Shown in pieces: positions 2,771-64,000 of a stretch of 64,000 bases of DNA. The position numbers and the translations under genes were made by a program. Every line of letters starts with the position of its first letter. Positions within the stretch are counted from its first letter, which is position 1. This DNA comes from Marsupella aquatica (taxonomy: Eukaryota; Plantae; Marchantiophyta). The stretch covers positions 9,163,079 through 9,227,078 of the forward strand of contig OZ316898.1 in the NCBI GenBank assembly GCA_973895155.1, in the 5' to 3' direction. The notes beneath the pieces are model-generated. The model had not been told where the DNA came from. It worked only from the letters and a program-made list of their open reading frames with translations, and made no database searches.

Positions 2771-3096
2771 TAAGATGAGGACATCTCACACCGGTCTCGC
2801 ACCTGGCACCTGTGTCTATGACTATACATGATTGGACTCTGATATGGTCATGGATGTACGTGCAGAGGCAGTACATGTGAGGACAGCGGAGGAGTTGACA
2901 CCCTCAAACATTTAGGAATTTTGTCTCATTCACTTGAGAATAGGTACATGACTCAGGCACCTATATTTTTTGTTTTTTTGTTTTTTTGGAACGTTACGTA
3001 TTTTGGCAAGTACAGTCGGGGGTGAAATCCTTAACAGGAAGTGTATTTTTCACTTGCATAATAAAATGACAGGGTGCTGAGTGCGTGTGTATAGTG

Positions 3097-6000: not shown

Positions 6001-6797
6001 TGTTTAGACCTAACTATGCCTGTACCTCATAATGCAGGGAATATGATATGCAAAAAGCTGCACACTTTGGGCAGCAGGATCCCTTCCCACAGTTCGAGCA
6101 GTGGATTCGGGTGACAATTCGAGAGCATAGTAGACATCACCCAGATATGGAGAAGGATTTGTATCTTCTATCTGTGCCACCACGATTGTCTATTCTGACC
6201 TACAAACGGATGAGAGCTTATGGAAATCATTATCGAGTGAGGGATGAGCAGGGTGACCATTGTGTATCATATGATTGTGGTTTGATTTCTGTGTTTGAGC
6301 AGAGAACCTCTGAAGAACAGAGGGGGTGGATGAAGATGGGTTACGTGGGGGAGTTGACCGACATTTGGGTGTTGAATTATGGTAACACAAGTGTCCCAGT
6401 GATATTGATGAAGGGATCATGGGTGAAATCAGAGTGGCAGAGACCAAGGGCCACCATGAAGCGTGATCATGATGGGTTCTTGTTGGCCAATTTTAGGTCC
6501 AGAGTACCAGAATGGTCTGAGCCTTTTGTTTTCCCTAGCCAAGTTGAACAGGCTTTCTTTGCAGATGTGGAGGAGTCACATGGCTGGAGGGTGGTATGCC
6601 ATAGCCAAGCACGGAACAGGCGGATGGATGGAAGTAAAGTAGAGTTCAGTTTGGATGACCATGCTGCATTCGAGCATCCTAGTCATGAGACTGTACTTCC
6701 AACTCGGGCAGGGACTGACTACATCCCCTTAACATTGAGAGAGACATATGATGAACCTGGGCAAATGGAATATGATGAGGTTGATGATTTGCAATAG
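3097..6797 (+). CDS. CACTA Tnp2/TnpD-like transposase, 3 exons (3097-4887, 5023-5924, 6038-6797), about 1150 aa, apparently intact
   Basis: Motifs CPCTQC, IDACPNGC..F, LRHFPLIPRLQRLF, LSLDGVNPF, YNLPPW, DYPG, DVMHIEKN, MKTHDYH, FFDVMTHL..H, WMYPMERYM, EPFVFPSQVEQAFF. GT-AG introns join the three ORFs in phase (1791+902+760 nt) with no stop. Confidence 0.93.
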
Positions 6798-10639: not shown

Positions 10640-10967
10640 TAAAAGACTTATACATACCCCACAAAGTATATTTAAAGACTACCCTCCATAACCTTTTTAG
10701 TCGTTCCCAACGACTCATCATCGCAGCCCATAAAAGACTAAAAACGACTCACCAAAGCTACCCACACAAAGACTAAAATAGACTGAAAATCCAGTCTATT
10801 AAACGACTTATAAACCAGTTCTATAAAGGACTCAGTTGATTATAGTAACAAAACATACGACTCGCAGTCCTATAAAGGACTAGAGTCCTTCCCAGTCGTT
10901 TCCAAGTCCTATACGGTACTGAATAGTCGTTTAATGGGGTCTAAATACCCCCCGGTTTCTACTAGTG
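10640..10967. repeat. CACTA subterminal repeats and right TIR
   Basis: Many AAGACT/ACGACT/AGTCGT motifs in both orientations. TIR ends at 10967 and is followed by ATC (candidate 3-bp TSD). Confidence 0.75.
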
Positions 10968-11864
10968 ATCGGCGAGGATTTTCTCTGAAGGGACCTGCAT
11001 AAGACTCACCCAAACAGTTGTTGACCACATCTTTCATATCATCTTCGGTCAGGTTCTCAAATGTAGGGTAGGATTGTACCATATCACTCACTTCCCAACA
11101 TATCTCATCTCCAGTGACATCCAAGATGGTATACTCAATCTTGGAACGCCAAATCTTACTTCCCCACTTATGGGAAAGTAAAGCATAGATTGCAGCATTA
11201 CTTTCATGGTCATCATTTATATTAACAAATGACCAAAGTGGATTGTTGACAGATATATATTGTCGGATGTCATAAGCCTTCCACAATTTTCTAAGGAATG
11301 GCCAAAGTATCTCTGGTAGAAAAGTGTCACTCTCGGCAATGTGTGAGAAGGGAGTTGGGAACAAACCACTATATTGTGGATTTGCAAAAGCCTTCACTGG
11401 AGAGTCATCAATAAGTAGAGTGTTTGTATCATCATACTTGTCTCCAAAACGACTCCACACCACACGCAAATCCTTCAACATAATATTTGCTTTCCCATCT
11501 GCTACGTCCGGTCTTTTTATGCCAGTATCAAAAGCATCTTCTTGTGTGAAAACAAATTTAAATTGCCTCCGCTCCTCTTCTTTGAAAATCAAATTCATCA
11601 TTTCATTAGTTCTTGGCCTCCCCGCACAAGTCCACAATGCGACATCAAAACCTTTGAAAGCCACCTCCAAAAATTGGTGCAACCCTGGCCTTTCCACGTA
11701 CATGAAATTGAATCCACCCCGTCTCCCCCAATGCACACCCCGCACAGTTGTTGTAGATCTTAACGGTCCTGAGCTTTTTGTTTTGACGCAATCCCAACAA
11801 ATTTTGTTCAGGTCCAAAATCAAGAGTTTTCTTCTTATATCAGAGTGCAATTTAGGAGTGAAAT
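10968..11864 (-). pseudogene. FCP1/NIF-family HAD phosphatase-like gene truncated by the CACTA insertion
   Basis: RKLLILDLNK...RPGLHQFL...FDVALWT...LKDLRVVW...NTLLIDDSPVKAFANP. The ORF runs into the CACTA TIR (SLVETGG is encoded by the TIR). Candidate acceptor TTTGCAG near 11865. Confidence 0.85.
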
Positions 11865-12343
11865 CTGCAAAGATCCAAATGAATCAAAATTATATCTAAA
11901 AGATAAAAAAGAAGAACTTAGGGTCGAACCTGGATCGACCCGACCTAATGGGGAAAACAAACATATCATTTTTGAATGTCAAAGCATTTTGATATATCAA
12001 TGTAGAAGTACCTTGCTCAAATGCTTTGTCTTGGACCAGGGTACCGCTTGCTGAAGGTAGACCAATAATATCCTTCGATGGAAGAGAACACGATTTCGGA
12101 CCGACCGAGAAGTGTGTCGGAGTTCTCGTTTAGCCCGATCCCGTTTTTTTTCTAAGGCAATGCAATGACCGATAAAACTGGCAAAAACTCTCCGAAACGC
12201 CACTTTCCTCCATTGCATCGCCGCGGGAATGCAGGGAGCGATACGTGCATCGGGTTTTACATTCCGTCAGTGAAAAAGTCCGAACTACGAGTAACTTGGT
12301 CCGAACCGCGTAATCCAGGAACGACCACGCACTAATCCAGGTA

Positions 12344-25596: not shown

Positions 25597-28011
25597 TCAA
25601 GCTTGTTGTCGAATATCATCGAGTTCGAGCAGCTCCACGTAGGTGACAATCCGATTCTGTGTTACTTCCATCAGCTCAGTCTGACGTGGTGATCCTCGAG
25701 AGTAGGGTAGGCACCTTAGTTGTCTCTCAGGATACATCAAAGGCATTCGCTTCATCAAATAACAGGAATCTATACGAAGAGCTTCTCTGTATATCCCTAG
25801 TACATCATAGTTGTTGCAGGTGGCAGCATATACTTGGGGATAGTGATGCAGCAACTCATCACTATTCATCATCCTGGAATAGAAGGGTCGAAGTCTCCAT
25901 CTGACATCCTTAAAATATCGGTTGAAATGAGCCAGGGTCTGAGTAGTGACATTATTCCAGATCCTCTGTTTCTCAGCTAGGGAACTGGTGGAAACAAGGA
26001 CAACCTTCGGCTCTCGTGGAATGTAAGAGTTCTGGTGAGAAGTGGATTTCTTACTCTGCATGAGAAAAGAAATCACAAAGTCCAGAGCGTAAGCTGCAAA
26101 ATTCCCGAAATAGGCCAAAACCAAATCTGGATCTTCTACTTCTACATCCCCTTGAAGTAGCATCATAGCAAGGATGGGTCGGAAGTAGATTGAGTCAGTC
26201 CAGAACTCATCAAATTGAGCCATCTCCACTCTTGAAGTTCCGAAACTTCTGAGGTCAAATATGTAACTGGCCTCAGTCTTCTTAAGGTAGTAGTATCTCC
26301 AAAACTCTCCAATTGGGGGTCTGTTGGCCTGCATTATCTTACAAGTCTCCACGTACCTCTGCACTTGAGACTCTGGATGTCGTGTATATCTTTTTTCAAT
26401 GACAGAATACCGGGGTGTTTGAGTAGAGGAGGTGACAACTGCCACTAAATTTGGATCAGATCTTAAGGTAGTGTCAACATCCTCAAATCCTTGCCTTGGT
26501 GACGACTCGACAGAGTTGTCATAAGATCTGATGGAATCAAAATCAGAGGGTGGATCAGAATCCTCAGGAAGATCCTGTCTAACAGAAGGATGTTCATACT
26601 GTGGTTGGGTATAAATAGGTCCCTCGGTTGGCTCATAATTGGAATCTGGACTATAAATGCAGTCACCCGGGTTGGAAGGGCCTTTGAATTCTGTGTACTT
26701 CGGAATTAAGTCACTAACCACAGAGATTATCTCCTCAGGTTCACACTGAAGCAATTCCAGTAGGTCAGTTACAATTGCAACACAACTTGTGTTTCCTATC
26801 CTTGAGACAGGTTCACTTGGCTCTGGAGGTAGATTCTGTGGGACAGTAGGAGTGAGAGCAACAAATTCTTCTGGTGTTGACCTCTCAATGGGAGAAGCGG
26901 TCCTGACAGGGGTTAGCTGATCTGGAAATGGAGAGGATAAGCTAACTGCCTCGGATCTCAAATCACAGACAACATCGTAGAGTTCAACATCACTGCAACC
27001 GAAGAGAGAGATTAACTTATCAATAAGCTGCTGATTTGACTCTGCTTTCGAAAAAGGGGGCATGGTGACTCCTCGTATGGCAGTAATAGTTGGTTCAACA
27101 ACGACTTCTTGTTGCTCAGGAAAAATCTCGTCTCCTTCAGCTTCAAGTTGATCTGCTCCACTGATTTCTCTTGGAGAGTATAAAATGACCTCCATGTTGT
27201 GTTCAGGGGGAAATTCCGAACCACCTATCGAGACATCCTCCATATTAACATCGATGTCCATATTAACATCCTGATCAGTGGAATTCAGCAGAATGTCCTG
27301 TTCTGATTCTGCTACACTAATTTCTTCCTCAATGTCCAACTCGATCAGAAGTAATCCCCTTTCTGTTTTCTCCTCCGGATGTAAACAGTCATGTGCTTGA
27401 TACAGCTGAGATAGATAGACTTGTAGACAAGTAGGTCTGCCTGCCTTCATACTTCTCACCTGATCGTTCATCACATTGAAAAGTAACAACGCCCAATTTG
27501 CTTGGATAGCTCCACTGTGAGAAGCTACGATAGTATTCGCCAATGCCACAGGGCAGATAGTTGGTCTCTTCGGATGGAGAATGGGCACTAGAAATTCTAA
27601 AAGAATCCTCAAATCCGGATAGGTACATTGTGTCACATTCCAGCCATTGGTAGGATGGCGAATCCCTGAAAAGTAAGGAGTGGACAAATCTTTTTTCTTT
27701 GAATATAATCCTTCTCCATCTAAGGGGCAGCGGAAGGCATGAGCTACTTGCTCAACTGTCCATAAACTTGGCCGAGCTCGAATGGTTTGTCGAAATTCAG
27801 GGGCAATCAGTGATCCTCTCACAAAATCCTGTAAATAAGAGTCGAGCTCCACATTCCAAGGGATTGCGAGTAGATGTTCCAATCCGAGCTGCTGTAACGA
27901 TGTTCTCAAATTTTCACAACTGTCGGGCGCCAAAGGAATTCGAGCGACCACACTCTTAGGAATTGCCAGAGTTTGAACACGATACTGTGCATCAGCGTCC
28001 AAGTCAGCCAT
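25597..28011 (-). CDS. 804-aa intronless ORF, probably a retroelement-associated accessory protein
   Basis: Uninterrupted ORF. N-terminal region (LGLEHLLAIPW...TIRARPSLWT...GEGL...NGW....C....LR.LLEFLVPILHP.RPT.....LANTI) resembles a repetitive hypothetical-protein family I recall from bryophyte genomes, followed by an acidic/Pro-Ser linker and an unknown C-terminal domain. Confidence 0.7.
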   Translation of the reverse strand: MADLDADAQYRVQTLAIPKSVVARIPLAPDSCENLRTSLQQLGLEHLLAIPWNVELDSYLQDFVRGSLIAPEFRQTIRARPSLWTVEQVAHAFRCPLDGEGLYSKKKDLSTPYFSGIRHPTNGWNVTQCTYPDLRILLEFLVPILHPKRPTICPVALANTIVASHSGAIQANWALLLFNVMNDQVRSMKAGRPTCLQVYLSQLYQAHDCLHPEEKTERGLLLIELDIEEEISVAESEQDILLNSTDQDVNMDIDVNMEDVSIGGSEFPPEHNMEVILYSPREISGADQLEAEGDEIFPEQQEVVVEPTITAIRGVTMPPFSKAESNQQLIDKLISLFGCSDVELYDVVCDLRSEAVSLSSPFPDQLTPVRTASPIERSTPEEFVALTPTVPQNLPPEPSEPVSRIGNTSCVAIVTDLLELLQCEPEEIISVVSDLIPKYTEFKGPSNPGDCIYSPDSNYEPTEGPIYTQPQYEHPSVRQDLPEDSDPPSDFDSIRSYDNSVESSPRQGFEDVDTTLRSDPNLVAVVTSSTQTPRYSVIEKRYTRHPESQVQRYVETCKIMQANRPPIGEFWRYYYLKKTEASYIFDLRSFGTSRVEMAQFDEFWTDSIYFRPILAMMLLQGDVEVEDPDLVLAYFGNFAAYALDFVISFLMQSKKSTSHQNSYIPREPKVVLVSTSSLAEKQRIWNNVTTQTLAHFNRYFKDVRWRLRPFYSRMMNSDELLHHYPQVYAATCNNYDVLGIYREALRIDSCYLMKRMPLMYPERQLRCLPYSRGSPRQTELMEVTQNRIVTYVELLELDDIRQQA

Positions 28012-28215
28012 AGCTCAAATTCTGCTCACTGAGCTGCGCGAAGAATTGTTTGGAGTCGAGAGCGATGAAAGATGCAGCGGAAGAGAAGTCAGGAGTGAGC
28101 GCCTATGTTCTGGATTCCTCCCCCTTCAAGGCCTGCTCCTCGTTTTGTTGCAAAGTCCCGTTGGAGTTAGCCGTAGCCTGTCACAATCGCGGGGCTCGCC
28201 AGTTCGCAAGTCGCA

Positions 28216-31843: not shown

Positions 31844-33400
31844 TTATTCTCCAGGCTCTTGCACTTCTCCTTGTCCTTCTTGGCCGCTTCCAACATTGGC
31901 CCGTAAGTCTTGGTTACTTCGATGACCCACTGCATCAATGGCCTTGGCCAACATCTCTGGCGAAGCAATGGGAGTAACACCGGGTGGACAGGGCTTCTTC
32001 CTCTTCCCTAGACTTAGGGCGTCGGCTCTCTTGGCCCTTGTCTCATAAGCACTCACCTGGCCACGCAACTCTGAAATCTGCTTTTTGAGGGTATCCACAC
32101 CCTTTTCGGCTTGCTTCATCATTACCAGCTCCTTCCTCAAAGCAACTACTTCCTCGGCCTCCTTGGCCTTGGTGGACAGGGCTCCTTGCAAGTGGCCAAC
32201 TTGGTCATAGGCTTGCTTCAACAACCTACTCCTCTCTTGAATAGTCTCTTCCTTGGACACTATGACCTCCTTCAGCGCCTTGTGCCCAACTTGCAAGGTG
32301 GCCACCTTAGCATTGGCCCTACTCAGAGCCCACTTCATGGCTTTGCACAATTGCCAGCCCTCGTTAATAGCATCACGGTACTCTTGCAATTCCGCCAAGT
32401 ATACCTTTGGAATGTCATACACAATGGGCTCCTCGGGATTACCAATCAAGGACTCCAACCACTGCATGGTAAACTCTTCATCCATATCCTCTTCTTCGTC
32501 TGGTGCCCCCTCCACCACGACATCAGTGGCCAGTTCCTTGGTGGAATCCGTGGTCAAATTCTGTACGACAGTGGTGGCAATCTTTCGTAAGACGGTGGGG
32601 AAGGAGGGCAATACTCCTTCCTCTGGTTCGGGAACTGAGATGAGCCCCTCCATCCTGTTCAAGAGAAATGACCCAAGAAAATGGATGATTCCTCCAAGCT
32701 TTTGGCCTTTGGGATCTGCGGTCAGCGTTTTCCTCAAACCAAACACCCACCATCCGTACGTGTGCTCCGGATGTTGCTTGATGTCCAATGCAATGGCCAA
32801 GTGTTCCCCTGTAATTATACCTGATTGTACCCGACTGAGTATTCGTTGATGGACCTTCCCAACAAAACCCCTAAGCGCTGGGTCCTTGAAGGATGCAAGG
32901 GAAATGTGTACCACAGAGGTAGCCTCCTTCACGTACATGGCCAACTCTTCCAATGTGAGTGTCCCTGGTGGCTCCATGGGGTAGAATGTCAGGTCCTGGT
33001 TGTGCAACATCAGCAACCGAGTCAATTCGTCATGAGGGAGGGTGCGCTTGATGCATGCAAAGTACAATCCATCATCCCGTAATTCCATCCCATCCTCAAT
33101 CTCCCAATGCCTATCCACTGGAGCACGCATGTCCACTCGCATTAAATTGATAATCCTGGTGGATTCAAATAATTCACGGCTATCATGCAGAAGCTTGGCC
33201 AATGTCTTGGGGTATGAACGTCGTTGAGTCCTTCGTGACATGGGTGCTTCACTGGTCCCTGACATTGTGGCCCTGGTTGCCAGTTTCTCTTCTTCTTCTC
33301 TGGCTAGCTGCAGAGCGATGTACTCCCGGTAGGCTGCCTTGTACCTCCTAATGCGAGCATTGGTGAACTCAGGTCTGTCTTGGGATCTCATCCACCCCAC
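31844..33400 (-). CDS. 518-aa intronless hypothetical protein with C-terminal coiled coil; frameshifts into 31456-31980; probably TE-borne
   Basis: Long ORF with a heptad-rich K/E/L/A segment. Upstream TATA-like CTATATAAG on minus near 33690, next to GC-rich repeats. Confidence 0.55.
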   Translation of the reverse strand: MGWMRSQDRPEFTNARIRRYKAAYREYIALQLAREEEEKLATRATMSGTSEAPMSRRTQRRSYPKTLAKLLHDSRELFESTRIINLMRVDMRAPVDRHWEIEDGMELRDDGLYFACIKRTLPHDELTRLLMLHNQDLTFYPMEPPGTLTLEELAMYVKEATSVVHISLASFKDPALRGFVGKVHQRILSRVQSGIITGEHLAIALDIKQHPEHTYGWWVFGLRKTLTADPKGQKLGGIIHFLGSFLLNRMEGLISVPEPEEGVLPSFPTVLRKIATTVVQNLTTDSTKELATDVVVEGAPDEEEDMDEEFTMQWLESLIGNPEEPIVYDIPKVYLAELQEYRDAINEGWQLCKAMKWALSRANAKVATLQVGHKALKEVIVSKEETIQERSRLLKQAYDQVGHLQGALSTKAKEAEEVVALRKELVMMKQAEKGVDTLKKQISELRGQVSAYETRAKRADALSLGKRKKPCPPGVTPIASPEMLAKAIDAVGHRSNQDLRANVGSGQEGQGEVQEPGE

Positions 33401-33689
33401 TCCCCCTCAAGAGCACAACCGGTGACCGATTCCCGTTCCTCAATTCCTAGAGCTTGGCGTCGTGCGGCCCCCGTACCCAACCACGATAAAATAAATCAGG
33501 TTCCCTCTCCAACTAAGTCCTTGTCAATCCCCACTCCAGCTCACTCCATGGCCGCTCTCAGAATCACTCAAGGAAAATAGAGGTAGTATATGACACAAAG
33601 GGGAAGGTTGATGAGGAGAGAAAAGAGTTTCGGCAATGAGTGAGGAGCGCAAAAAAAACTGGGAAAAAAGAGTTGGAAATGAGCACTTA

Positions 33690-34876: not shown

Positions 34877-37800
34877 ATGTGTGCGTCACTACTACCCTTT
34901 AAAATCATTCCTTGGGACCATTGGCCCCGTCACAATCTACAAGTCACCTTTCTGTCAGAAGTGATGTCCAATGATCTTAAGAGAGTATGGACATCATCTG
35001 TGGAGAAGTTGTTGGCTTACATGGAGTCCATTAAATGTGGTGACCACAAATGGAAGGTCAAAACCTGGGACAAAGACAACCTGCCAAGGGAACATCTTGA
35101 GTGTTGTGAGTGTGACACTCGGGTGGAGGGGACGTCAAAGGGAGGATTGATGGATAAGACATCCATCAACAATGCTTTCACAAACTACAAGAGCAAGCAT
35201 TTGCGCTCATCCAAGCATGCAGCCCGTGTTGCATCAAATAGGGGTGAGACTGTGGACCCACAAGAGATTGGTAGAAGGGCTCTTGCTACTAGTATGAGTG
35301 ATAGAGCCATACTAGACCAACATCTGAGCATTGTGGCAAAGGTCAATGAGTCCCAGAGTGTCAGTCAGGATACATTTACTGTCGTGGGCGATGTTCAGAC
35401 TCGGGGGTCTCACTTCCACAAAAATGACATATCACGTGCGACGAAGGATAGGGTCATTTTATTGGTTCTAAGGGAAGACTTAAGAATTTTTGTAGAAGAA
35501 CAATAGGGTCTTTTAAATTCAATTTTGAGACTTATAAGAATATTAGGGTCTTTTTAATCCAATTTTTAGAATATTCCAAGAATATTCCAACTTTATAGGG
35601 GTTAAAAAATAAAAAAATTTCTTACATTTTAGGGGGTCCGAGGCCTAAAAACGTCGCAGGCGATGGGGAGGTCCCCATATAGTGAGACCCCCAAGTGTTC
35701 AGAAGGACCCAGTGGAGCTGCAGAGGTTGAAGCTTTTCTGCAACTTTTGTCTGTGCCACATGTCATTGATACCAAAGCAACGGAACTTGGAGTCCAACCT
35801 GAACGCTCATTGTAGTGGGTTGAGTCATCTTGATTACGTGACAAAAAGTCAGAGGCCCGCAAGAAACAAACCTGTCATGTCAGGACGTCCTGGAAGACCC
35901 CGAATTGTGGACAGGAGGGATGTCAAACAACGGACAATCCAAGGGTTTTTGAGCCGTTCGTCCACTCCAGGTGCCTCCAACAGTTCCTCTCGGGTGCCTA
36001 CAGCAGACAATGATAGAGGTATTATTGATAACTTATCACTTTTGTGTTGGGGTCTATGGCGGGATGAGGTACAATATGGTTCAGAATCCAGGCCTATCAA
36101 GGCAGTCTTGAACGACCAAGTCAAAGTAGAGGGGAACTGGTTTGCAGAGCCTCTGGTCAGGGTAGAGGTGTGGTGTTTGTCCACTCAAGAGACTTGTGTG
36201 ATCATGGGTTTATTCAGACATTCCAAATGTAGGCGAATTTCACAAGAAGGGGGTGGTTTTGAAGATTTGACATGCTCAAAATGTTTTTCCATAAAAACAT
36301 TAGACGACTTTAGACAAAGGGTATCAAGAGAAGATAAAGCCCCTGAGAAACGGGGTTTCAGAGGGACCGGGAAGGGTAGGCGCTTTGGGTACCTCACAAT
36401 TTTTGAGATTCAATGGCAAGCTAAAGTGTATAGGAACACTCTTTGCAGAGAGAGAAAGTTACAGAGATTCCTCAGCCACAAATTGCTTATGTTTAAGTCC
36501 TCAGTTCCAAGTGTTAGGGAGGTTTGCCTCAACTATCAGGGTCCAAACAAGGAATCTGTCTTGAAAACTTGCCAGTCAATAGTTTTAGCACACAAAAGGG
36601 GCGCATTTGGTGGAAGGGGTGCTCTATGGGATATGTTGTCAGATATAGCTTCAAACTTGAACAAAGAGAAGGAAGGCTATAGATATAAGCCAGGAACAAA
36701 GCTTCTATGCCAGACATTGTTCTTGCATGGTGGGCGCCGTGTAGTTGACTGCCTTTCCACTAACGGAATAGGGCCTAGTTTAAACACCCTGCAACGAGAC
36801 AAGAGAGGTATGTCAGTGTTCAGAGCAGGGCTCCATGAATCTCAATTCAAGTTTATTGCAGAGATCTACTCTGAAATTAAAAAATGCCTGGATATATCAG
36901 GCCCAATTCCCTGCTTTCTGGCAGAGGACGAGACCTATGTCAAGCGAACAGTAAGGTAATTTTCCTTTAACAGCTTATGAATATTTGTCAAGGCTGTTCA
37001 ATGACTTCTCTAGTTCAAGTATGTGGAGTTCTTTGAACATACACTAAAGTAGTGACATCTTGCATTCTTTGCAGATGGTTGCATAAAGATGATACACTTC
37101 TTGGGTTTTGTGGAAGCAAAACCGACCATGAATGTAAGACTGGATTGCAGATAGAGGTGTGGCAGGGAGAAGTTGGCTTCAACAACATTATAGGTGCTTT
37201 TGATAATTCAAGGGTAGGGCACCTTGCAAGGTGTGTGATAGTGAATCCCCTTGCTGTGGGCCTCGCTTGCCTGTACTGGGCACGTCAACCTGTAATACGT
37301 TTGACAGTCCTTGGGTCATGCGACAATGGAGTGACATGGATTCAATGTGGACCACCCACTGTCTAGAGAAGGTGGGCCCTGTACTAGGCCACGCAAGTGA
37401 TGGGGATTCGCGAAGACGAAAACTCATGCTTGAGGACTACAGTGGAAGAGGGGTACCAGGGCCAAGGGTACCAAACCTGATGTGGGAAGGTTGGAAACTG
37501 ACTCACACCATGACCAATGATGGAACATTGAGGCATGCAACAGGGCTACATGATCAGGATTTTATCCACAATGGGAAGAAGCTAGTTAATCCACTGGATT
37601 CTACTGCCCGAATCCTAAAATTAGGGTCACAGGTGGCAAACTTGAGTCACCTGAGACATGTCTACCGTTTATATGATCATGAAGAGCATGGTCTTAACGA
37701 GGAGGACATAAGACGTGCAGACAGGCAAAATTGGGCAAGTGCACAAAGACTGTGTAGCCGCAAAGTGAGTTCCATGCTAAAGATGCTACGATTGCGCAAG

Positions 37801-39802: not shown

Positions 39803-42800
39803 ATGGTGTTAGTTACTGGAGTCAAGAAGAAGTGCAGACGTGATCTTGGAAGCCCTGCAGTACCAAGAGGCAGAGTGAGAAAAGGAATTTGGAGACCTGC
39901 AAAGAGTAAACCTGTAGGGGATGAAGCCAAAGTGATTGAAGTTCCTGCAAAGAGGAAACCTGTAGAGGATGAAGCCAAAGTGATTGAAGTTCATTGTGAT
40001 GATGAGTCTGTATTTGATACAGGCTTAGAAGCTTGTGATGTTGTGGTTCCTATTCTAGAGTCAAGTGTGAAGGGGCTATGTAGGATAGTTAGGATTGAAA
40101 GATCTGAGCATGTGTGTGCTGTTGTGCCGGCAACTTCTACAATCAAATTTTTTGGCCTGCAGAATTGCCTGTAAAGTGTTGCTTAACAGAGCATCCTAAT
40201 GGCGATGGAGGCTAGATGTAGTAAATCTAAACAAGGTTGTGATTTAGCAGCCCGAAAATATTTACTTGTAGTTATTAATAGCATGTTCTCTTTCATACAA
40301 TTCTAGAAAGTACATTAGTGAATTCTCTATACCAAAGAGACTTTGATAATAAAAGTATACAAGTATTTTCATCATAGTTAGCTTTGGGTGTTTTTCTTCT
40401 ATTTTGAATGAATTTTTTTATAATGGAGCAACGTGAATTAAATTATCTCAATTTATCCCTTTATAATAACTAAAGGATATAAACAAAGGCCAAAACTCGG
40501 ATTTTTAGAAGTAACAAGAGAAATATAAATTATCAAAAAAATATTAAGAAGGGGTACCAAGAGGGGGGCCGATCACAGGGGGGTCTGGATATTTTACTAG
40601 GACTGAGGGCCCAAGGTTTTGAAAATCACCGAGTCCATTGATTCCATCCAAAGAGAAGGTTGTTGCAGGTTAAAGTGTTGCTTGAACATGCCAAGAGAGG
40701 ACTTGGAGGCAATGAGGAGGGAATTCCATGGAATGTCAAGTGACAACAAAACAAGTCATATCTTCAGTCTTTTTGGGTGTAGAGAAGACCAAGTCAAGAG
40801 AAAAGGATTTTTTGTTCTAAAGGGATGTGTGGTTTGTAAGGATGCGTTCATAAAAATGCATGGGTTTAGTACGGCAAAGTATTATGATTACAAAAATCAG
40901 TACGAAGCTGGGTGCACAATTGGTTTCCATGGAAATCAAGGGCAACATAAGACACAATCAAGCACCTTGCATGCTCGTGCATTGTTGGAGTCCATTTTAA
41001 TCCAAAATGGAGAACCAATGCCACATCTTCCCTATGGTGGGTCCAACGGCACCAATACTGTCGAATATTGACTCCCATCATGTTTCACTAAGAAGGAGAT
41101 TTTTCAAGAGGTATTTGCAAAGATGGAATTGGACGGCTACGCTAAGGTTACTGAAGTTACTATGTACAACATCTGGAAAAATTATTTTGATAATTTTGAC
41201 TTTCACAAGGGCAGTGCATTTGCCAAGTGCACATTTTGCACTGAGTTCAAAGATCAATTGATGCGGGAGAAGAGGAAAAAAGAGCATGCAGAGATTGAAG
41301 AGAAAAGAGCATGACATCTTCGTGAACAAATGTCAAGGAGATATGTTTACTATGCTCATAGGGTTCTTGCAAAGAAGGATCCTCAAAACTATCTTTGCAT
41401 TATTCATGATAAGATGGACCAAGCCAAGACTTGGATCCCCAGATTGGTCCCCACTCCAAAATCTCTCTCTGGTAGTGGTCAACCTCTGCCCATTGCTCTT
41501 ACTGGGATGTTAATCCATGGAAGGGATCCAGGAGTGTATGCACACTTTAGTTTGACTGGCCTTTGGCCTGGAGATGCAGACTTCACTGTGACATCTTTGG
41601 CCAAATGCCTTCAAGATTTGGAGGATTACACTGGAGACAAAACGGGAGACATGCTTGAAGCTTTCAATTGGAACGCAACTAGGCCAATATTTCAGTCTCT
41701 TTTGGACTTTGAAGCATTTCAAGCGGGTTACTTGGAACCCAAAAATGTTTCAATTCTCAAGTTTCAAGGCCTTGATGACGGTCAGGAAAGCCAAAAAACC
41801 AGCACAACAGATGCTGGTTCTAGAGTTGATCCTGAGACTACGAGCTCTTTCAAGCCCTTACCAAGGCACCTAACACTGCAGATGGACAATTCAGGAAAAG
41901 ATAATAAAAATCAATATGTGATGGCATTTTGCAGCGAGCTTGTTAGCAGGGGGTGTTTGAAACTGTGCAAATGTCATTCCTCATGGTTGGCCACACCCAT
42001 AAGGATGTGGATGCACTATTTTCTCAAGTATCCAAACAGGTCAGGTACAAAGAGGTTGCTACCCTCCTTGCGTTGATGGCTGAGGTTTGGGAGTGTGAAA
42101 GCATCCATCCCGTACCACGATTGATTCAGGAGGTTGCATCTTACAAGCAGTATTTGAAGAATTTCCAAGTGAAAGAGATTGAAGGTCACTCAAAACCAGT
42201 GGCATTTCTACTCAAAACCAGTGGCATTTCTATTCTCCATGAGGGATAATGTGCCAGTGTATCAATATAAAGCACATGTCAAACAACCTTGGCTTCCAGC
42301 AACAAGGAGGTCAATTTGGAGAACTGATCTCATCACAAACACGCTCATTTTACCGGAGGGCCAACCATTTGCAAAACCTATATCAGGGGAGGTACAAAAG
42401 AAAGCCGAGGAAATCATCCAATTCCTTAATCGTTACATTGATTTCTTGAGGAAAAGTTGCAAGGATGAGACCTCTGCAGCATACCGCGAGAGATTTCCTT
42501 TGGTGAAATATTGGGAGAGGCTTGTTATGGCACTCTCTGAGGCACTTACAATAGAAGGGGAGGGAGAAAGACAATTGTCATTGACAACTGATTTCTGGCC
42601 AAAGACTAACCATGGCACAGGTTACAAGGTGATTTTGGGGACCTCTCAACCTTCAAGTGAACCTACTCAAAATTCAGAGATGATGGACCTTCAAAATGAG
42701 TACATGGAAGAGATGGAAGGTCAAGCTGCACCCTTCGTTGGTGCATGAGAAGAGCGAGAACTTGCACGTTGGATTCCCCTACAAGATATTCAAGAGGGTC

Positions 42801-51095: not shown

Positions 51096-52796
<1,701 letters not shown>

Positions 52797-56400: not shown

Positions 56401-56964
56401 ACCAGGTTCGAAGCCCTCTCCCTGGTTGCTGACGTATTGTGTTCAGGCTTAGTTTCGCACCTGTTATTAAACATAAATGAAAATATAGAATAGAAATAGA
56501 AATAGCAAAATATGGCTGAATAATGTTTTGCCAATCATAAATGATGAAGCTTTACACAAAGCCCAAGAACATCATTTCCTGTTTGTCAGATTGTTAATGT
56601 ATGAAGCTTTTGACCAAGCTGATTGGGGTGGATTTCACAAAATGTTTGCTACAACCACCAATCACTAGGGGAAACGGTAATCGATTTGCCCACCCTTCAT
56701 TGCAGCAAAGAGAATTTCTACCGTCAAACTCATAGATCACTACTCTTTGTGGCCTTGGAAGTGATTCTCAGTTGATTTGTTCCGTTTGGATAGTTAATGG
56801 GTCCTTGTGTAGGACAACTTTTTTCTGGCAGTTCTTGCAAGGCATCCACGTTGCATTTTTGGCATCAAACACAAAGAAAACTGTTTAGGCACGGTAGAAA
56901 AAGAACATACTGCTTACATCATCTCATACGTTTAAACCAGTTTAAAAGTTTAATCCTTGGTCTT

Positions 56965-57567
56965 TGTCGTGCGCATACACATCGCTACACAACATATATC
57001 GCTTATCACATACATCCAAACATAGTCACACTGCCACATCACAAACACAAGAGAATGGAATACAAGTGGAACTCATGTCCACACATGTCCAAAACCCACA
57101 ATAATCTCCATCCAATCGGCACAACGATCCCGATCAACAATACCCCATCGATCCCTCACCGATCCGATCACACACGTATGTCAAGCCAACGCACCTTGCA
57201 CTACTCAAGGAATCCACGTTACACAAGCGGAGCTCACAGCCACCATAGCCACTCAAGCTCCTCTCTCTCCAAGGCTCAACATTGAAAGATGACCTTTCAA
57301 TGCCTCACAAGTGAGAAGTACCCTCTCACACAAACCTGACGGAACCTTATCGGCTCATATAGCACACATACCAAACATACAGATCTAGATAGTACGATAC
57401 ACTCTAACACTACCTAGAATGGTGTGACAGTTGTCGTGCGCATACACATCGCTACACAACATACATCGCTTGTCACATACATCCAAACATAGTCACACTG
57501 CCACATCACAAACACAAAATAATGGAATACAAGTGGAACTCATGTCCACACATGTCCAAAACCCACA
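56965..57567 (-). repeat. 3' LTR (TG...CA) with ~136-bp direct repeats at both ends
   Basis: Starts TGTGGG at 57567 after the PPT and ends CGACA at 56965. Blocks 56965-57101 and 57432-57568 are near identical. Confidence 0.8.
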
Positions 57568-57751
57568 ATCGCCCCCCTAGCTGGGAGTAAGGTCCCCTAA
57601 CTCTAGCTAGCCATGAGTTCTACAAGGTTGATATACACCTTTTTAGGTGTGAAGATCAGGAGGCCGGGTGCAAGTGAGCCCCATCGATCACCTACCTGCA
57701 ATCCATATCTGCCAAGAGAACACAAATGATAACTAGTCGGCCTAGTCGGCT

Positions 57752-59090
57752 TCACCGACACTGAGGACACAACCATGATCCACTAGGAATCACCTGCAAT
57801 GGTGGTGTCAAACATGACATGTGCCACCCTCTAGAACACTTATCACAAATCAACATAGTAGCTGCTCCCTGAGCAGATCCACACAACATACATTTCAAGC
57901 CAGCACGAACATGTGCCAAGCTTGGATCTACTGTACCATCAATGTTGGGAAGGTGACATGGTGCACAGTTGCGCACATGATGCTTCCAAACCATACCATC
58001 GTGTCCCTCCAACATCAGGACACCAGAAGGCAACACTTCACGCACACGTAAGATTGTCCGGCCTGCGGTCACATCAAGTGTTGTGGGTGTTATCTGTTGC
58101 AAATAAACATAATCACCAGGATGAAATCGTTGAATGCTTGCACGGTAACCTCCTCCACGAATAGTGGCATACCTCAAAGTATCACGATGTTGGGCAATGG
58201 CAAGGTTGTCAAAAGCCATGGGCATCACTCTCTGAAATACCCGTGCTTTCTCTGAACACACCTTGACCCAAACATCAGGATCATCCAAGTTCACAACTGG
58301 TGCAGCATCACGACGAATAGCTGTTGGCAAATCTGGCTCTCTACCATAGAGCAAAAAGTAAGGTGAGAAGGATGCAAGTGATGCTTGCCGACTGAAACGG
58401 TAGCCCATAGCTAACCAAGGTAGCTAGAGATCCCAATCTCCCAGATGACCAACCTGCAAGCCATACTTACGCAATCCTCTCTTCACAGTTTGCACATTCA
58501 ACTCTCTCAGCTAATCCATCTACCTCAGGATGATCACGAGAGGTAGTACGATGATCAATCAAAGCTTGTTCACACAAACTCTCAAACTCTCCACGGAACT
58601 TAGTTCCCTGATCAGTCAACACCTCAGCTGGTGCTCCAAAATGACTGAGTACGCAATCCAAAAATGTAGCAGCAACTCCTCCACTAGCTTTATCTGGCAA
58701 CGCCACTAGCTTTATCTGGCAACGCCACTAGCTCAATCCACTTGGAGAAGTGCTCCACCATAACCAAAACATATCGATTATGGCGTTGGGTAAGAGGTAA
58801 TGGACCAGCAAAATCCAAACTCCAACGATATCCCAAACCCATGATCGGTAACAGGTGCAACTGGGGAGTGGGAGCATTGAATGATGCTCTCACTCTATCG
58901 CATACCACTGTACACTTAGCTATCAACTACTGGACATGAGTGTGCATACCACGCCACCAATACTGTGTCTGCAGCAAGCTATAAGTGCGCTTCACACCAA
59001 AGTGACCCAACTCCTCGTGTGCATGTCGCACCAAATGTACTCGTTATGATGGTTTTGGTACCACCAACACCCTACCATCATGCAGTACTC
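57752..59090 (-). pseudogene. Integrase (HHCC, DDE) with C-terminal PHD finger
   Basis: HEELGHFG..RT...YWW, WSLDFAGP, VLTDQG, GLAER, FSPYFLLYGR. Terminal CMLC...LICDKCSRGWHMSCLTPPL...PSGSWLCPQC (C4HC3). 22-bp duplication frameshift at 58681-58724. Confidence 0.9.
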
Positions 59091-59399
59091 TCAAAAGATG
59101 GTTTCCCTCCCATCGAAACCTCTTGGCTCTTTGTAGAACCCTGTCACGTTCTTTGGCATCAACACTGCCAACAATAGAACCACTGCGCAGATATTCCAAC
59201 ATCTCACATCATTGTGAATATCTTGCTGTCCAAAAGTTACCTCACCAACATCCATATCTGAAGACTCATCATCCACTCCATCCAATGAGGTAGAGTCCAC
59301 AGATCCACTGTATGCTGGCACCCAACAAAGAAAGGCAGATGCATGCCATCCTGGCACCATCTCCTTATCTGATTCATCATGCCATCTGGCTCCAGTCTC

Positions 59400-60860
59400 A
59401 TCTTGCTGACTGGTACATGAATTGCGGCTTAATCCATCTGCATCCAAGTTCACTTTTCCAGGCCTATGCACCACCTGGAATCATACTCCTGTAATAACAA
59501 TGCCCATCGTGCAAGCTTCCCTGTAAGCTTGTCAGACTCCATTAACCACTTAAGAGGCTGATGATCAGTGATCAAGGTGAAGGGGTTACCAAACAAGTAG
59601 CAACGAAAGTGTGCAATAACCCACACTACTGCCAAATACTCTCCCTCATAAGAGCTATACTTAGCCTCTGTTGAATTGTTTGATCTACTGGCATAAGCCA
59701 TAACAAACTCATTCCCCTCATCATCCTTCTAAGTCAGCACTACTCCAAGTCCTATTCCACTCCAATCAGTGTGTAGCTGAAATGGTCTGCCTGAAATGGG
59801 TATTCTCAAAATAGGGGATGATGCCAACCTTTGCTTCAACTCCCAAAAGGCATGCTCCTGGTCATCACCCCAAATCCATTCCTGATCCAACTTAGTGAGT
59901 ATGGTCAAAGGTTTAGCAAGCTGGCTAAATCCTTTAACATACCTCCTATAGTAGCTCGCCAATCCCAAGAATGCACGAACTCTACTCACATCAGTAGGAC
60001 AAGGAATCTGTGTAATGGCCTCCACTTTAGTCTGTTGTACACCCATTCCCCCTAGGTATATAGTGTGGCCCAAATACTCAATCTGGTCTTGGAAGAACTT
60101 ACACTTGCTAGGATGGAGCTTCAACCCATGTGCTCTCAATCTCTCTAACACAGTCTGCAAGTGCTGTTGATGTTCTTCCACAGTAGAAGAATAGTCCAAA
60201 ATATCATCAATATAACATCTAACAAAATCCAAACCTGCAAGGATTCAATCCATGACTCTCTGGAACTCAGCTGGTGCATTCTTCAAACCAAATGGTAAGA
60301 ATAAACCACTGATACAAACAATCTTTGCCATAAGAATCAATCCCCCAGAATGTTGTCCTGGACCTGTCAGCATGCCTAATTGGAAGCTGATGGTACCCTG
60401 CCCTCAGATCCAATGAACTGAAAACCTTTGTATGCCCCACAGCATCAAAGATCTCCTCAAGTGTGGGCATGGCATATCTATCAGATTTTGTCTGGCGATT
60501 AATGGGTCTGTAATCACCACACATGCGCCTATCTTTGTAATTTCCATGCACATCCTTCTTGGCTAGCATCACTGTGGTAGATGCATACTCCCCATATGAA
60601 ATCTCCACCAATCCAGCCTCCAACAAATCTTGAGTTCTGCTTTGAATTAGAGCTCTCTTCATGTCACTATAATGGTATGGCCTACGAAAGATTGGCGCAT
60701 CACTAGCCAATTCAATCTGAATACCAGGACCCTTTAATGTCCTCAAATCTTTCATGCTAAATGCAAAACAATTCCAGTAACTCTTCAAGAATTGATGCAT
60801 GCGACGTCTCTCCTCCCCTGTCAACTTAGGGCCAAGCTGTGGTTCCCAACTCTCCACCAA
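59400..60860 (-). pseudogene. Reverse transcriptase and RNase H
   Basis: RMCGDYRPIN, FSSLDLRAGYHQ, YIDD, KCKFF....YLGH, FLGLASYYRR, LHTDWS, AYASR, YEGE, TDHQPL; several stops and frameshifts. Confidence 0.95.
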
Positions 60861-61089
60861 ATCCCTAATATCTCTTTGTAGGGTAGAAGAGATAGCCGAT
60901 GATTGCTATTTAGCAGTAGATTGAGCAGTCCCTTCCTGCTCAACAATCTGTCCAGCCTTGGCCAATCCTGCCATAGGTCCATGGACTGTCTGCTCGCCCC
61001 TAGCCGTGGTCAGTACTGTCTCAGTGGATCGCAAGCTCACCAAGGGACAATCAGTAATTCTAGCAGAGCGCATCCGCAACTGTTCAGCT

Positions 61090-62070
61090 TACTCCCAAGC
61101 TGATAATCCAAGTCAAACAATTCAGGTCCATTGCTTGACCAAGAACCTAGCGCCGCAAACTCTCTGACACAGAGGCAACTGCAGTGGTGCCAGTCAAAAA
61201 TCCCATAGCACGCTCTCTCTCATCAGCAGTAGGTTCCACTAACTGCTGGAGAGCTATGTCCCACACAAGTCCAAGGCCACCTGCTCTGAATGCATATGAA
61301 GCAGAGTGGCTTACAAGAGTGGGTAATGCACAACGTGGGCACCCAACTACATTGACCATTGTCAATGGAGGTCTATCAGGTTGGGTCACACCCTGTGCAC
61401 GACGCCCTGGATCCAAAATATCATCCACCACTAAGGCTGGTGAGCGTGGAATGCTGTCAAATGCGCGCTTCAGCACCTCACATGGGATCAAATTAGTCCA
61501 CCACAAGCGTGGATGATGTACACGAGAACCCACACGTGCAGCATCCAATAACACAGTAGGTCCAATCCAAGACCTCACCTGGTGAACACTGGCAATAATT
61601 CGACTACGATCATCACCTAACAATGGCACATTCTCCAAAATGTATGCTGGAGACTGTGTCTGATGTAGTTGGAGATGACGCAGCACCCGTAATATCTCCC
61701 AAAACAATGCAGAGCATGGATCATGAAGTCCATGCCCAATGCCAACTCTAGATTGGCCCTGACATGGCCAACCAGCAATCACCAAATCAATGGGGCCAAC
61801 ATGATGCAGATGATCTGCCCCCAGCAATGAAATATCAGCAAGTAGTGCATGTTGATAACCACAAACAGCATCCACTGGCAACAACTATGGATATCTATCC
61901 ACCAACATAGCCACATGTCACAATGAGAACCTCCGTGCTGTCTCATCTGACTCCATATACAAATAACGACGCACATGAATTCCTGCCTGAAGAACAGTAG
62001 CCAATCCAGTGCTAATCCCACCAAAAAGATCCAACAAACAAATACCCTCCGGTGGATACTGCCAAGCAAT
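61090..62070 (-). pseudogene. C5 DNA cytosine methyltransferase domain within the retrotransposon pol
   Basis: Motif I LLDLFGGISTG, II YLYME, IV DLVIAGWPCQG, VI YILENV, VIII HPRLWWTN, IX ERERAMGF..G.T, X LGQAM. Single frame with three premature stops (61918, 61888, 61147). Confidence 0.92.
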
Positions 62071-62133
62071 AGGAGTGGTATCCAATGGTGAAAGAGTCAC
62101 AGGTCCATCTGCAAGAGGCTGCTCTGCTCCTGA

Positions 62134-62830
62134 CTATGGTGTAAAAGCATGACGCCATGCATCATGTACCAATTGTGCTGCTGTTTGTGGCAAGGCCTGT
62201 GCAGTGCCCCACACTGGTGGCACAACACTACCAACAGGTAATCCTCGCATGATGTGCTCCTTATGAGACTCCTCCAATGGTGGAACATCTGCTGCATGCG
62301 CATTACCCTCAATCAAATCATCAGGTCCAGCAATTAGACCATTGAATGCTGCCAAAGACAATGGTGTGGATTTAGGGCCTCCCACAGGTCCACTAAATCT
62401 CACTGGCAATTTTCTCAATCGAGCATCTCCTGATTGCCAATCAGGTCTATATGACACTGATTCCTCCCAAAAATCAAGAATAAATCCCATGGGGTAGAGC
62501 ATTGTACATCCCACCAACACATCATATGACTCTGCCTTAGTCAGAATAGCTCGCGCCTGTATCTGTGAGCTATCTATGGTATGACCTTCTTGAATCCTCA
62601 AATCAAGAGGTCTCCTGGTAATGTGCTGTGTAGGTGTAGGTTCCCCCAATGAAGTCTGAATGGGAAAGGGACAATCCTCTAGACGCAATCCCAATCCACG
62701 TATGGCAGACTTTCCCAACATCAAGGGTTAAGCACCAGTATCCAGTAACACCCTCTCTGGCTGGTATACTGCTCCAGAAGGCCCAACTAATCGGAAGATA
62801 CCACTCCGATTATCCAATGATACAACACTA
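62134..62830 (-). pseudogene. Retroviral-type aspartic protease
   Basis: PERVLLDTGA*PLMLG at about 62760-62715 and downstream YDVLVG. Confidence 0.8.
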
Positions 62831-63226
62831 GGTTTAAACCTAGTCCTCTCAAATGTAGAGCGTGCTGGTAAATCCACCAATCTCGCTGCTGCTGCATGTC
62901 TCACTAGTAGCAGTAGGTGGCATGGTCTTCACTGCATCAACACTGCAAGTTGCTTCTGCATGGGAAACAACTACTAGAGTGTCCTCACAGAGTGTAGCTG
63001 CCAATTTGAACACTTTTGCAGGACCAACTCCCAAGTTTAGCATGTCTGTCACTGAAAATAATGGGGCGCATACCATGGCAGTAGCCGCCCTCAACAAGGT
63101 ACCCGTCATCCCTGCTGCATCACTACCTGATTCTACCAACTTACCCACATCAGGGTTTGTCCGAACCGGGTTCATAGAGGCAGTCTGAACTGTCTCTGAC
63201 AATATAAAAGACTGAGGAAGCTTTGT

Positions 63227-63958
63227 CTACCAACGTGCATCCCCCCTTTGTGGATCTAACTCCACTACTGCTCCTCGGGGCTCAAGAGCTTTGGCTGCCC
63301 CACGTGTCAAAGCTGCTGATGCATCAATATGTGCAGTGCCACACATGAATCCCATGGTGGCAAGGTCTCCATCAGCTCCATAAGATGTGGAAGGACCATG
63401 GGATGTGGAAGGTCCATAGGATGTTGATGCCCCATCACCAGAAGTAGGTCTCACCTGGGAACTAGCCATGGCAGCTAGCTGTTGCTCCAATTGAGCAATC
63501 TTAGCATCCTTTGGATCTATGGTTACAGCAGGGGCAGTGTCACCTCCCTGTCTCCCTGCATGTGGCATGCCACGACCACATCCACCGCCTTTACCTCCTC
63601 CTCCTCTTCCCTGATCATGTGTACGGGATCCTCCTCTCCATAACTTAGGATGGAGTGAGAAACACCTATCCTTGGTGTGTCCAGGAGCTCCACAGTGATC
63701 ACACTGTTGCTGATCAGGCGCTGATGCTCCCCCTGATCCTCTATGATCTGGGAAATATCTCTGTGCATGATCCCCACCACAGGTCCAACATCCTGATTGC
63801 TGTCCAGCATAAGAGGGCACAGGTCTCTGGCTGGTAGACTCTCGTGCAGTAGGCTTCTCCCTTTGGCTCTTCCGTGCAGTAGGCTGTGGTGTGGATGTGG
63901 ATGCAGCCTTTGGTGCTTCCTTGGCAAATCCGGAAGTCACCACCTTCTCATTCACCAT
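63227..63958 (-). pseudogene. Gag C-terminal region with zinc knuckles
   Basis: CDHCGAPGHTKDRC (CCHC) and a degenerate CWTCGGDH knuckle. Confidence 0.85.
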
Positions 63959-64000
63959 ATTGAGCTCAATGCGCTCAGAAAGTGTAAAAATAATTGCTAA

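Follow-up and report, generated by a model that had tools for sequence, protein, structure and literature searches.

A DNMT3-like methyltransferase ahead of a probably leaky stop codon in a liverwort Gypsy-type retroelement

The presence of DNMT3-type cytosine methyltransferases in Gypsy retrotransposons of streptophytes is already established (de Mendoza 2018). Two close counterparts of the element reported here are described in the available text of that study, namely SymbioDIRS-Dnmt3 from dinoflagellates and KnitGypsy-Dnmt3 from the charophyte alga Klebsormidium nitens, in agreement with the precedents that the original prediction had named from these two groups (PMC5890265). There, the retrotransposon DNMT3 domains of Symbiodinium are reported to perform de novo CG methylation in yeast, the Klebsormidium Gypsy enzyme yielded no activity in yeast (judged inconclusive by the authors), and methylation of cDNA prior to integration was already proposed for DIRS elements (de Mendoza et al. 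2018; PMC5890265). DNMT3s in streptophyte retrotransposons are also mentioned in the portion available of PMC12344493, and "streptophytes (Gypsy-DNMT3)" are named in that of bioRxiv 10.64898/2026.05.21.726589. Chlamydomonas Gypsy-7a_cRei and related elements resemble the present one, as far as the accessible description goes, in being green-lineage Gypsy elements with a PHD finger and LTRs divided into subparts; however, compared by description only, the domains listed for Gypsy-7a_cRei do not include a cytosine methyltransferase (10.1101/2022.06.16.496473). Phygy and Selgy are likewise Ty3/Gypsy elements of non-seed plants outside the chromovirus lineages, but neither a DNMT nor a PHD finger is mentioned for them in the available part of PMC6317226. 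No DNMT-bearing Gypsy element from a land plant is described in the accessible portions of PMC6317226, PMC11244446, PMC2836005, PMC3441728, and three preprints. Similarly, no description of bryophyte copies, a Gag-side DNMT, a readthrough context, an integrase PHD finger, or three alternative DNMT positions was found in the literature searched, with subscription papers, figures, and preprint supplements mostly beyond its coverage; published DNMT trees may already include bryophyte sequences.

The element considered here was recognized by six-frame reading of positions 56900-64000 of the window, a 64,000-nucleotide stretch of the genome of the liverwort Marsupella aquatica, as a decayed Gypsy-type retroelement on the minus strand. 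It shares with KnitGypsy-Dnmt3, as portrayed in the accessible text and Fig. 4 legend of PMC5890265, a streptophyte host, Gypsy domains, DIRS-like split repeats, and an unpermuted DNMT3-like domain under purifying selection. Unlike KnitGypsy-Dnmt3, in which that text places the DNMT in the Pol ORF with reverse transcriptase (RT) and RNase H, the liverwort element resides in a land plant, its DNMT ends the Gag-protease (Gag-PR) ORF, and a conserved readthrough-type stop lies between DNMT and RT. With SymbioDIRS-Dnmt3 it shares a DNMT3-type domain and the repeat order A-coding-B-A-B, whereas the dinoflagellate element, according to the same partial source, relies on a tyrosine recombinase and carries its DNMT in Pol, and the liverwort family has a DDE integrase and 4-bp target duplications.

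All of the flanking domains that the original prediction had listed (gag, protease, RT, RNase H, and integrase) are found around the DNMT by motifs and Pfam matches, in the Ty3/Gypsy order gag-PR-RT-RNase H-integrase, every feature lying on the minus strand. The 3' part of gag (62954-64000), with two zinc-knuckle-like motifs (CWTC at 63790 and CDHC at 63703), was delineated by tblastn with the Marchantia protein P0003 (41% identity) and is disrupted by one stop and one frameshift; the 5' end of the element falls outside the window. The aspartic protease (LLDTGA, 62748-62731) and a linker follow at 62140-62898, assigned from the motif and from relatives, in the frame shared with the DNMT (61090-62061); on ORF1 of the intact relative L035 the Asp_protease_2 match (E=2e-4) is below the curated cut-off. 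Downstream are a broken RT (YIDD at 60214) and RNase H (59483-60850; RVT_1 and RT_RNaseH matches), a broken integrase (57950-59200; rve matches) with a 22-bp tandem duplication at 58681-58724, and, at the integrase C-terminus, a PHD finger (57758-57892; PF00628, E=1.7e-11) that the original prediction had not named. This copy is dead, with three stops interrupting the DNMT frame (at 61920, 61887, and 61149), the frame shifted near 61089, and gag, PR, RT, RNase H, and integrase each broken as well; it is a member of a high-copy liverwort family of Gypsy type. Its CpG observed/expected ratio is 0.30 compared with 0.69 for the neighboring gene, a depletion compatible with silencing by the host, as for any transposon, and uninformative on self-methylation.

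That the host is a land plant is borne out by an intact, intronless threonine synthase gene in the window (51099-52796, minus strand), the product of which shares 92% identity with that of Calypogeia fissa, 83% with those of Marchantia and Riccia, and 77% with that of Sphagnum; these values place the host among the liverworts, most probably the leafy ones. The window also contains a CACTA/En-Spm-type transposase region (3070-6794, plus strand; Transposase_21, DUF4218, and DUF4216), preceded by a BRCT-domain ORF (1197-2057) that lies in similarly CpG-poor DNA and is possibly transposon cargo; an intronless 324-aa frame with a NIF (CTD-type) phosphatase domain (10912-11883, minus strand; E=1.6e-16); and a frame with a DUF7869 match (41315-42073, plus strand; E=3e-16). 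Frames of 805, 520, and 436 aa (25600-28014 and 31847-33406, minus strand; 35649-36956, plus strand) matched no Pfam family at E<=0.001.

The predicted complete set of DNMT motifs in unpermuted order was confirmed in a single minus-strand frame: LDLFGG (62034-62017), IAGWPCQ (61779-61759), ILENV (61641-61627), HHPRLWWTN (ending at 61492), ERERAMGF (61221-61198), and VLGQAMD (61146-61126). A 245-aa open stretch of this frame matches PF00145 (DNA_methylase) with E=1.1e-9 and a score of 38.6 bits (cut-off 22). DNMT3A, B, and C lead a sequence search of solved structures, DNMT3A being the best, and the predicted structure of the corresponding domain of a relative, L001 (pLDDT 95.5), finds DNMT3A as its best fold (E=3e-20, TM 0.71/0.84). 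On sequence and on this model, the domain can thus be classed as a DNMT3-like C5 methyltransferase; the original prediction had called its motif style DNMT3/DRM-like. Sequence does not reveal whether the context methylated would be CG or CHH.

The domain might instead have been kept for a non-catalytic task, such as binding of cDNA or RNA, or might methylate RNA, a reading with which the inactivity of KnitGypsy-Dnmt3 in yeast (reported in the available text of PMC5890265) and a target-recognition region that differs from the one in DNMT3A (the second alignment block reaches no better than E=7.9e+02) would both agree. Nevertheless, all 62 aligned DNMT sequences retain the catalytic Cys and Glu, and the motif VIII Arg is nearly invariant (the first Arg is His in this copy, a change absent from its relatives), and the top fold ranks for the L001 model are held by DNMT3 and not DNMT2; a non-catalytic or RNA-directed role is accordingly considered quite improbable. 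Purifying selection on the domain is also evident, with dN/dS of 0.08-0.20 in six between-family pairs (about 0.1-0.2 between families; a seventh pair is saturated) and 0.30-0.65 in three within-family pairs of decayed copies, although dS is near saturation and the ratios are accordingly rough.

Whether the DNMT belongs to the element or represents a one-off passenger, i.e., a host DNMT3 retrocopy inserted into a single element, was addressed from several directions. When longer relatives of the DNMT were sought, 122 proteins were recovered, headed by one of 83% identity and by proteins of Marchantia polymorpha, Calypogeia fissa, and Sphagnum, and a profile search retrieved 646 cluster representatives at E<=1e-30. 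In four public sequencing runs, sister-copy contigs cover 30 of 30 bins of positions 60700-62200, that is, the DNMT and its borders, so sister copies do carry the domain; as thousands of contigs fall in this interval in the best run, the family is very abundant. The stops of this copy appear to be private: those at 61149, 61920, and 62136 are sense codons in 93-99% of the depth of the best run, among the variants listed, and the site of the stop at 61887 is open in the relative P0001. No point in support of a passenger insertion was found, and the occurrence of the DNMT across liverworts, Sphagnum, Closterium, and green algae, the congruence of RT and DNMT trees, the purifying selection, and the sister copies that span the domain and its borders together rule such an insertion out, leaving it a negligible likelihood. 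The claim of an integral domain was therefore upheld.

The claimed location inside pol, by contrast, was not. The DNMT closes ORF1 (Gag-PR-DNMT) and is separated from RT by a conserved stop, and intact relatives hold two ORFs, Gag-PR-DNMT and RT-RNase H-integrase-PHD, rather than the single gag-pol frame that had been expected. PR-DNMT forms the C-terminal end of 44 of the 249 mapped proteins (28 of the 44 also contain Gag), and full-length ORF1 proteins mostly stop 63-187 aa past the DNMT (77-85 aa in Marchantia and Calypogeia, for Marchantia from the proteins alone). In the window, the C-terminal tail of ORF1 (60909-61088) aligns to the last residue of P0001, the closest relative, with 67% identity, and the C-terminus of P0001 coincides with a TAG at 60908-60906. 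This stop is followed by CAA TCA (60900-60908 together) and then by RT, all in one frame, and thus has the form of a type I readthrough signal, i.e., a stop and CAR-YYA in frame with a downstream ORF; readthrough is predicted. Tobacco mosaic virus has UAG-CAR-YYA as its type I motif, and CARYYA is effective on UAA too, according to the available text of PMC3542737. As in that virus, the same hexanucleotide follows an in-frame stop that divides an abundant upstream product from polymerase domains; unlike in the virus as described there, it marks the transition from ORF1 to ORF2 in a retrotransposon, after the protease and DNMT domains, and its readthrough is a prediction.

Conservation of the junction was assessed in sister copies and in relatives. 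Positions 60840-60980 were compared with 323, 130, 39, and 2 contigs of the four runs at a 2% variant threshold; zero variants were listed for 60900-60915 in any run, and the flanking positions 60894-60899 and 60916-60921 are variable. Two loose ends at the junction proved to be diverged copies with TAA-CAA-TTA and TAG-CAA-CCA. In addition, 103 loci were fetched and 83 examined, the other 20 (12 short viral-contig matches and 8 of 11 genome-contig loci, all phage-type methylases) being excluded from all counts. Both the end of the DNMT and the start of RT are present in 61 of the 83 loci, 42 of window type and 19 of another type. A stop and CARYY in the RT frame occur in 39 of the 42 window-type sister loci (many redundant, from similar metagenomes, and comprising three groups besides the window) versus 12 of 772 decay stops inside domains; of the three misses, two are a single C-to-T change away and one has no stop. 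The three groups are a Sphagnum-like family (CAACCC), L001/L055/L056, and L035/L036/L041/L093; strict CARYYA is found in the window and 7 loci, and CARYYC/T in 32 Sphagnum-like loci. Two of these relatives, L035 and L093, are fully intact and comprise exactly two ORFs split by UAG-CAR-YYA (in L035, an ORF1 of 1369 aa with protease and DNMT and an ORF2 of 1047 aa with RT, RNase H, integrase, and PHD), and L041 has the same junction and ORF2 with a frameshifted ORF1.

ORF2 could alternatively be expressed through reinitiation or from an RNA of its own, spliced or sub-genomic, in which case no readthrough would be needed and the DNMT would still be a Gag-side product. Such a route is suggested by the Sphagnum-like family, most loci of which have an AUG three codons past the stop in the CAACCC context, by UAA as the stop in 10 of 40 listed junctions, and by the precedent of Candida Tca2, in which, as far as the source seen goes, the bypass of the gag-pol stop is unclear. 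Against it speak the CAR-YY context, preserved in the RT frame without exception across four groups whose linkers are unrelated in sequence, and the families that offer no AUG: the window, L001, L055, L056, L035, and L093 contain no in-frame AUG ahead of the conserved RT start. The occurrence of UAA, for its part, is compatible with a functional CARYYA (PMC3542737, in the text available). A route other than readthrough is thus rated improbable, and the conserved ORF1 stop, as its sequence context indicates, is likely leaky and read through into RT-RNase H-integrase-PHD. A long RNA stem predicted 3' of the stop (60802-60898) is suggestive only as a readthrough stimulator, given z scores of -1.5 in the window, -2.9 to -3.5 in three intact relatives, and -0.4 in L001 against values of up to -2.8 in upstream control regions.

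Placement at the end of the Gag-PR ORF is one of three DNMT positions encountered in green plants, the others being PR-DNMT-RT and RT-RNase H-DNMT-integrase-PHD, both in pol. The 19 other loci mentioned above have the order PR-DNMT-RT without the readthrough motif, and in L060 and L063 the arrangement of ORFs points to a shift of frame behind gag. The same metagenomes contain a second family (cluster 1; L053 and L059-L080), which places its DNMT in pol between protease and RT, has the identical split-repeat plan, and is without the readthrough motif; it thereby matches the Pol-ORF placement given for KnitGypsy-Dnmt3 in the accessible text of its description. The third layout is seen in 56 of 249 proteins, those of Haematococcus and Scenedesmus among them, and three intact elements have the DNMT between RNase H and integrase (L057:787-10355, L094:2-9516, and L095:122-9916), two with overlapping gag and pol frames and one with a single frame of 3265 aa. 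Whole elements on contigs filed as bacterial (L093-L095) are most simply mis-binned eukaryotic DNA. Related DNMTs also occur in algal retroelements of Cymbomonas tetramitiformis (P0360) and Closterium (P0303, P0306, P0327, and P0328).

In quick, unrooted trees drawn with midpoint rooting, host DNMT3/DRM not being included, the window clusters with Marchantia, Calypogeia, Sphagnum, and L001 with SH-aLRT support of 99 for the DNMT and 100 for RT-RNase H. In the RT tree, a transcript protein of Coleochaete scutata adjoins this group, Klebsormidium and Closterium fall in a wider clade, and the chlorophyte layout stands apart. In the proposed comparison with charophyte elements, the RT and DNMT trees agree, and four Klebsormidium RT proteins lie within the same wider clade (SH-aLRT 90, 31 rows), but they are not sister to the window group. 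None of the three domain-mapped Klebsormidium RT proteins showed a DNMT, and no DNMT protein named as Klebsormidium was among the relatives identified. Names of Physcomitrium or Selaginella are absent from the best 120 ORF2 matches. As far as such quick, unrooted trees can tell, the pattern is compatible with inheritance inside streptophytes.

The termini also depart from expectation. Where a polypurine tract and LTR had been claimed, the polypurine G-run is present (57570-57582, in the same place in 7 of 7 relatives with the junction read), but the element has split direct repeats in the order B-A-B instead of two identical flanking LTRs. Immediately after the tract come B1 (57569-57432), which ends in GACA and is followed by a 2-nt spacer; a unique A2 starting with TGTC (57429-57103), the 5' partner of which, A1, is expected past 64000; and B2 (57102-56965), the GACA of which is the 3' end of the element. 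B1 and B2 form a 139-nt direct repeat of 97% identity, and AAGA, the 4 nt after B2, is the predicted target-site duplication of this copy. The complete A-coding-B-A-B layout is seen in L031, L037, L060, L063, and L067; in all five the B/A junction reads GACA-NN-TGTC, and in four of the five 4-bp target duplications are readable (TCTC, AAGG, CCAA, and GGTC). Ends of TG...CA type (TGTC...GACA), a polypurine tract, and a short target duplication are therefore features of this kind of element, with the window itself contributing the 3' end only. The inner B/A junction resembles the joined cDNA ends of retroviral two-LTR circles. Membership in DIRS/Ngaro can be ruled out by the DDE integrase (rve) and the 4-bp duplications. 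A CG insertion preference of the Phygy kind is absent from the four target duplications, unlike the preference of Phygy for NCGN sites given in the available part of PMC6317226.

The best solved matches of the PHD finger downstream of the integrase are those of CHD4, DPF3, KDM5B, PHF21A, and UHRF1. The PHD fingers of these proteins are readers of unmethylated H3K4. On family resemblance, a PHD finger attached to the integrase would bind unmethylated H3K4 tails and steer insertion off active promoters. The main text available of PMC5890265 does not mention a PHD finger, and the passages seen of three of its supplementary files mention neither Marchantia, Sphagnum, nor PHD.

Taken in order, the layout suggests the following mechanism. 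Most ribosomes would probably terminate after the DNMT, and a minority would continue into RT-RNase H-integrase-PHD. Because the DNMT lies on the Gag side of a probably leaky stop, its production would likely match that of the capsid and it would be packaged: co-assembled at capsid stoichiometry, it would outnumber RT and integrase in the particle, where the protease would release it next to the cDNA. The DNMT may then methylate the finished cDNA, so that the new insertion arrives marked like host transposon chromatin, a step given slightly better than even chances. The reading as a whole, in which Gag-PR-DNMT ends at a readthrough-type stop and supplies a packaged enzyme that methylates new cDNA, is favored by a similarly narrow measure. 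Gag-level amounts would not be necessary for retention of the DNMT, since related lineages keep it in pol.

An abundant DNMT could also act outside the particle, in the nucleus, on integrated copies, competing elements, or host loci, and would then serve copy-number control or interference with host silencing. From a Gag-side position, enzyme would be expected in much greater amounts than a particle with its single cDNA requires, self-limiting and host-directed functions are discussed by de Mendoza et al. in the text available (PMC5890265), and the gene annotation of Marchantia includes several full ORF1 copies (1278-1281 aa). Conversely, fusion to Gag-PR predicts co-assembly into particles, and the DNMTs of other lineages, situated in pol beside RT and integrase, point to the cDNA; action outside the particle is hence regarded as unlikely, if less so than the alternatives above. 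Co-assembly of Ty3/Gypsy polyproteins into particles is established.

The present analysis adds to the known streptophyte elements a land-plant range, a conserved and probably leaky stop junction that groups the DNMT with Gag, and intact Marchantia frames, with full-length Gag-PR-DNMT annotated in Marchantia polymorpha as, for example, Mp4g09160, Mp5g06330, Mp5g06860, and MpVg00370. The role of retrotransposon-borne DNMTs has been open since 2018, in part because the known hosts, Symbiodinium and Klebsormidium, are difficult experimental organisms. Elements of this kind abound in liverworts and Sphagnum, and Marchantia serves as a genetic model for which methylomes have been published. From the conserved stop follows a stoichiometric prediction, namely DNMT in large excess over RT or integrase, and the three natural DNMT positions constitute a comparative test. 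DNMT gene counts in bryophyte genomes are possibly inflated by transposon copies.

In the broadest and more tentative scenario, which is plausible yet falls somewhat short of even chances, split-repeat Gypsy elements would form an old clade in green plants that possesses a two-part epigenetic kit, a DNMT3 writer and, on the integrase, a PHD reader of H3 tails; the land-plant lineage would have moved its recoding site so that the DNMT is produced at Gag level via a leaky stop of the tobacco mosaic virus type; and particles would pre-methylate new copies, with surplus enzyme that could methylate the bryophyte genome. If this is true, the intact Marchantia ORF1 copies would allow self-methylation by a transposon to be tested in a land plant that is a model organism.
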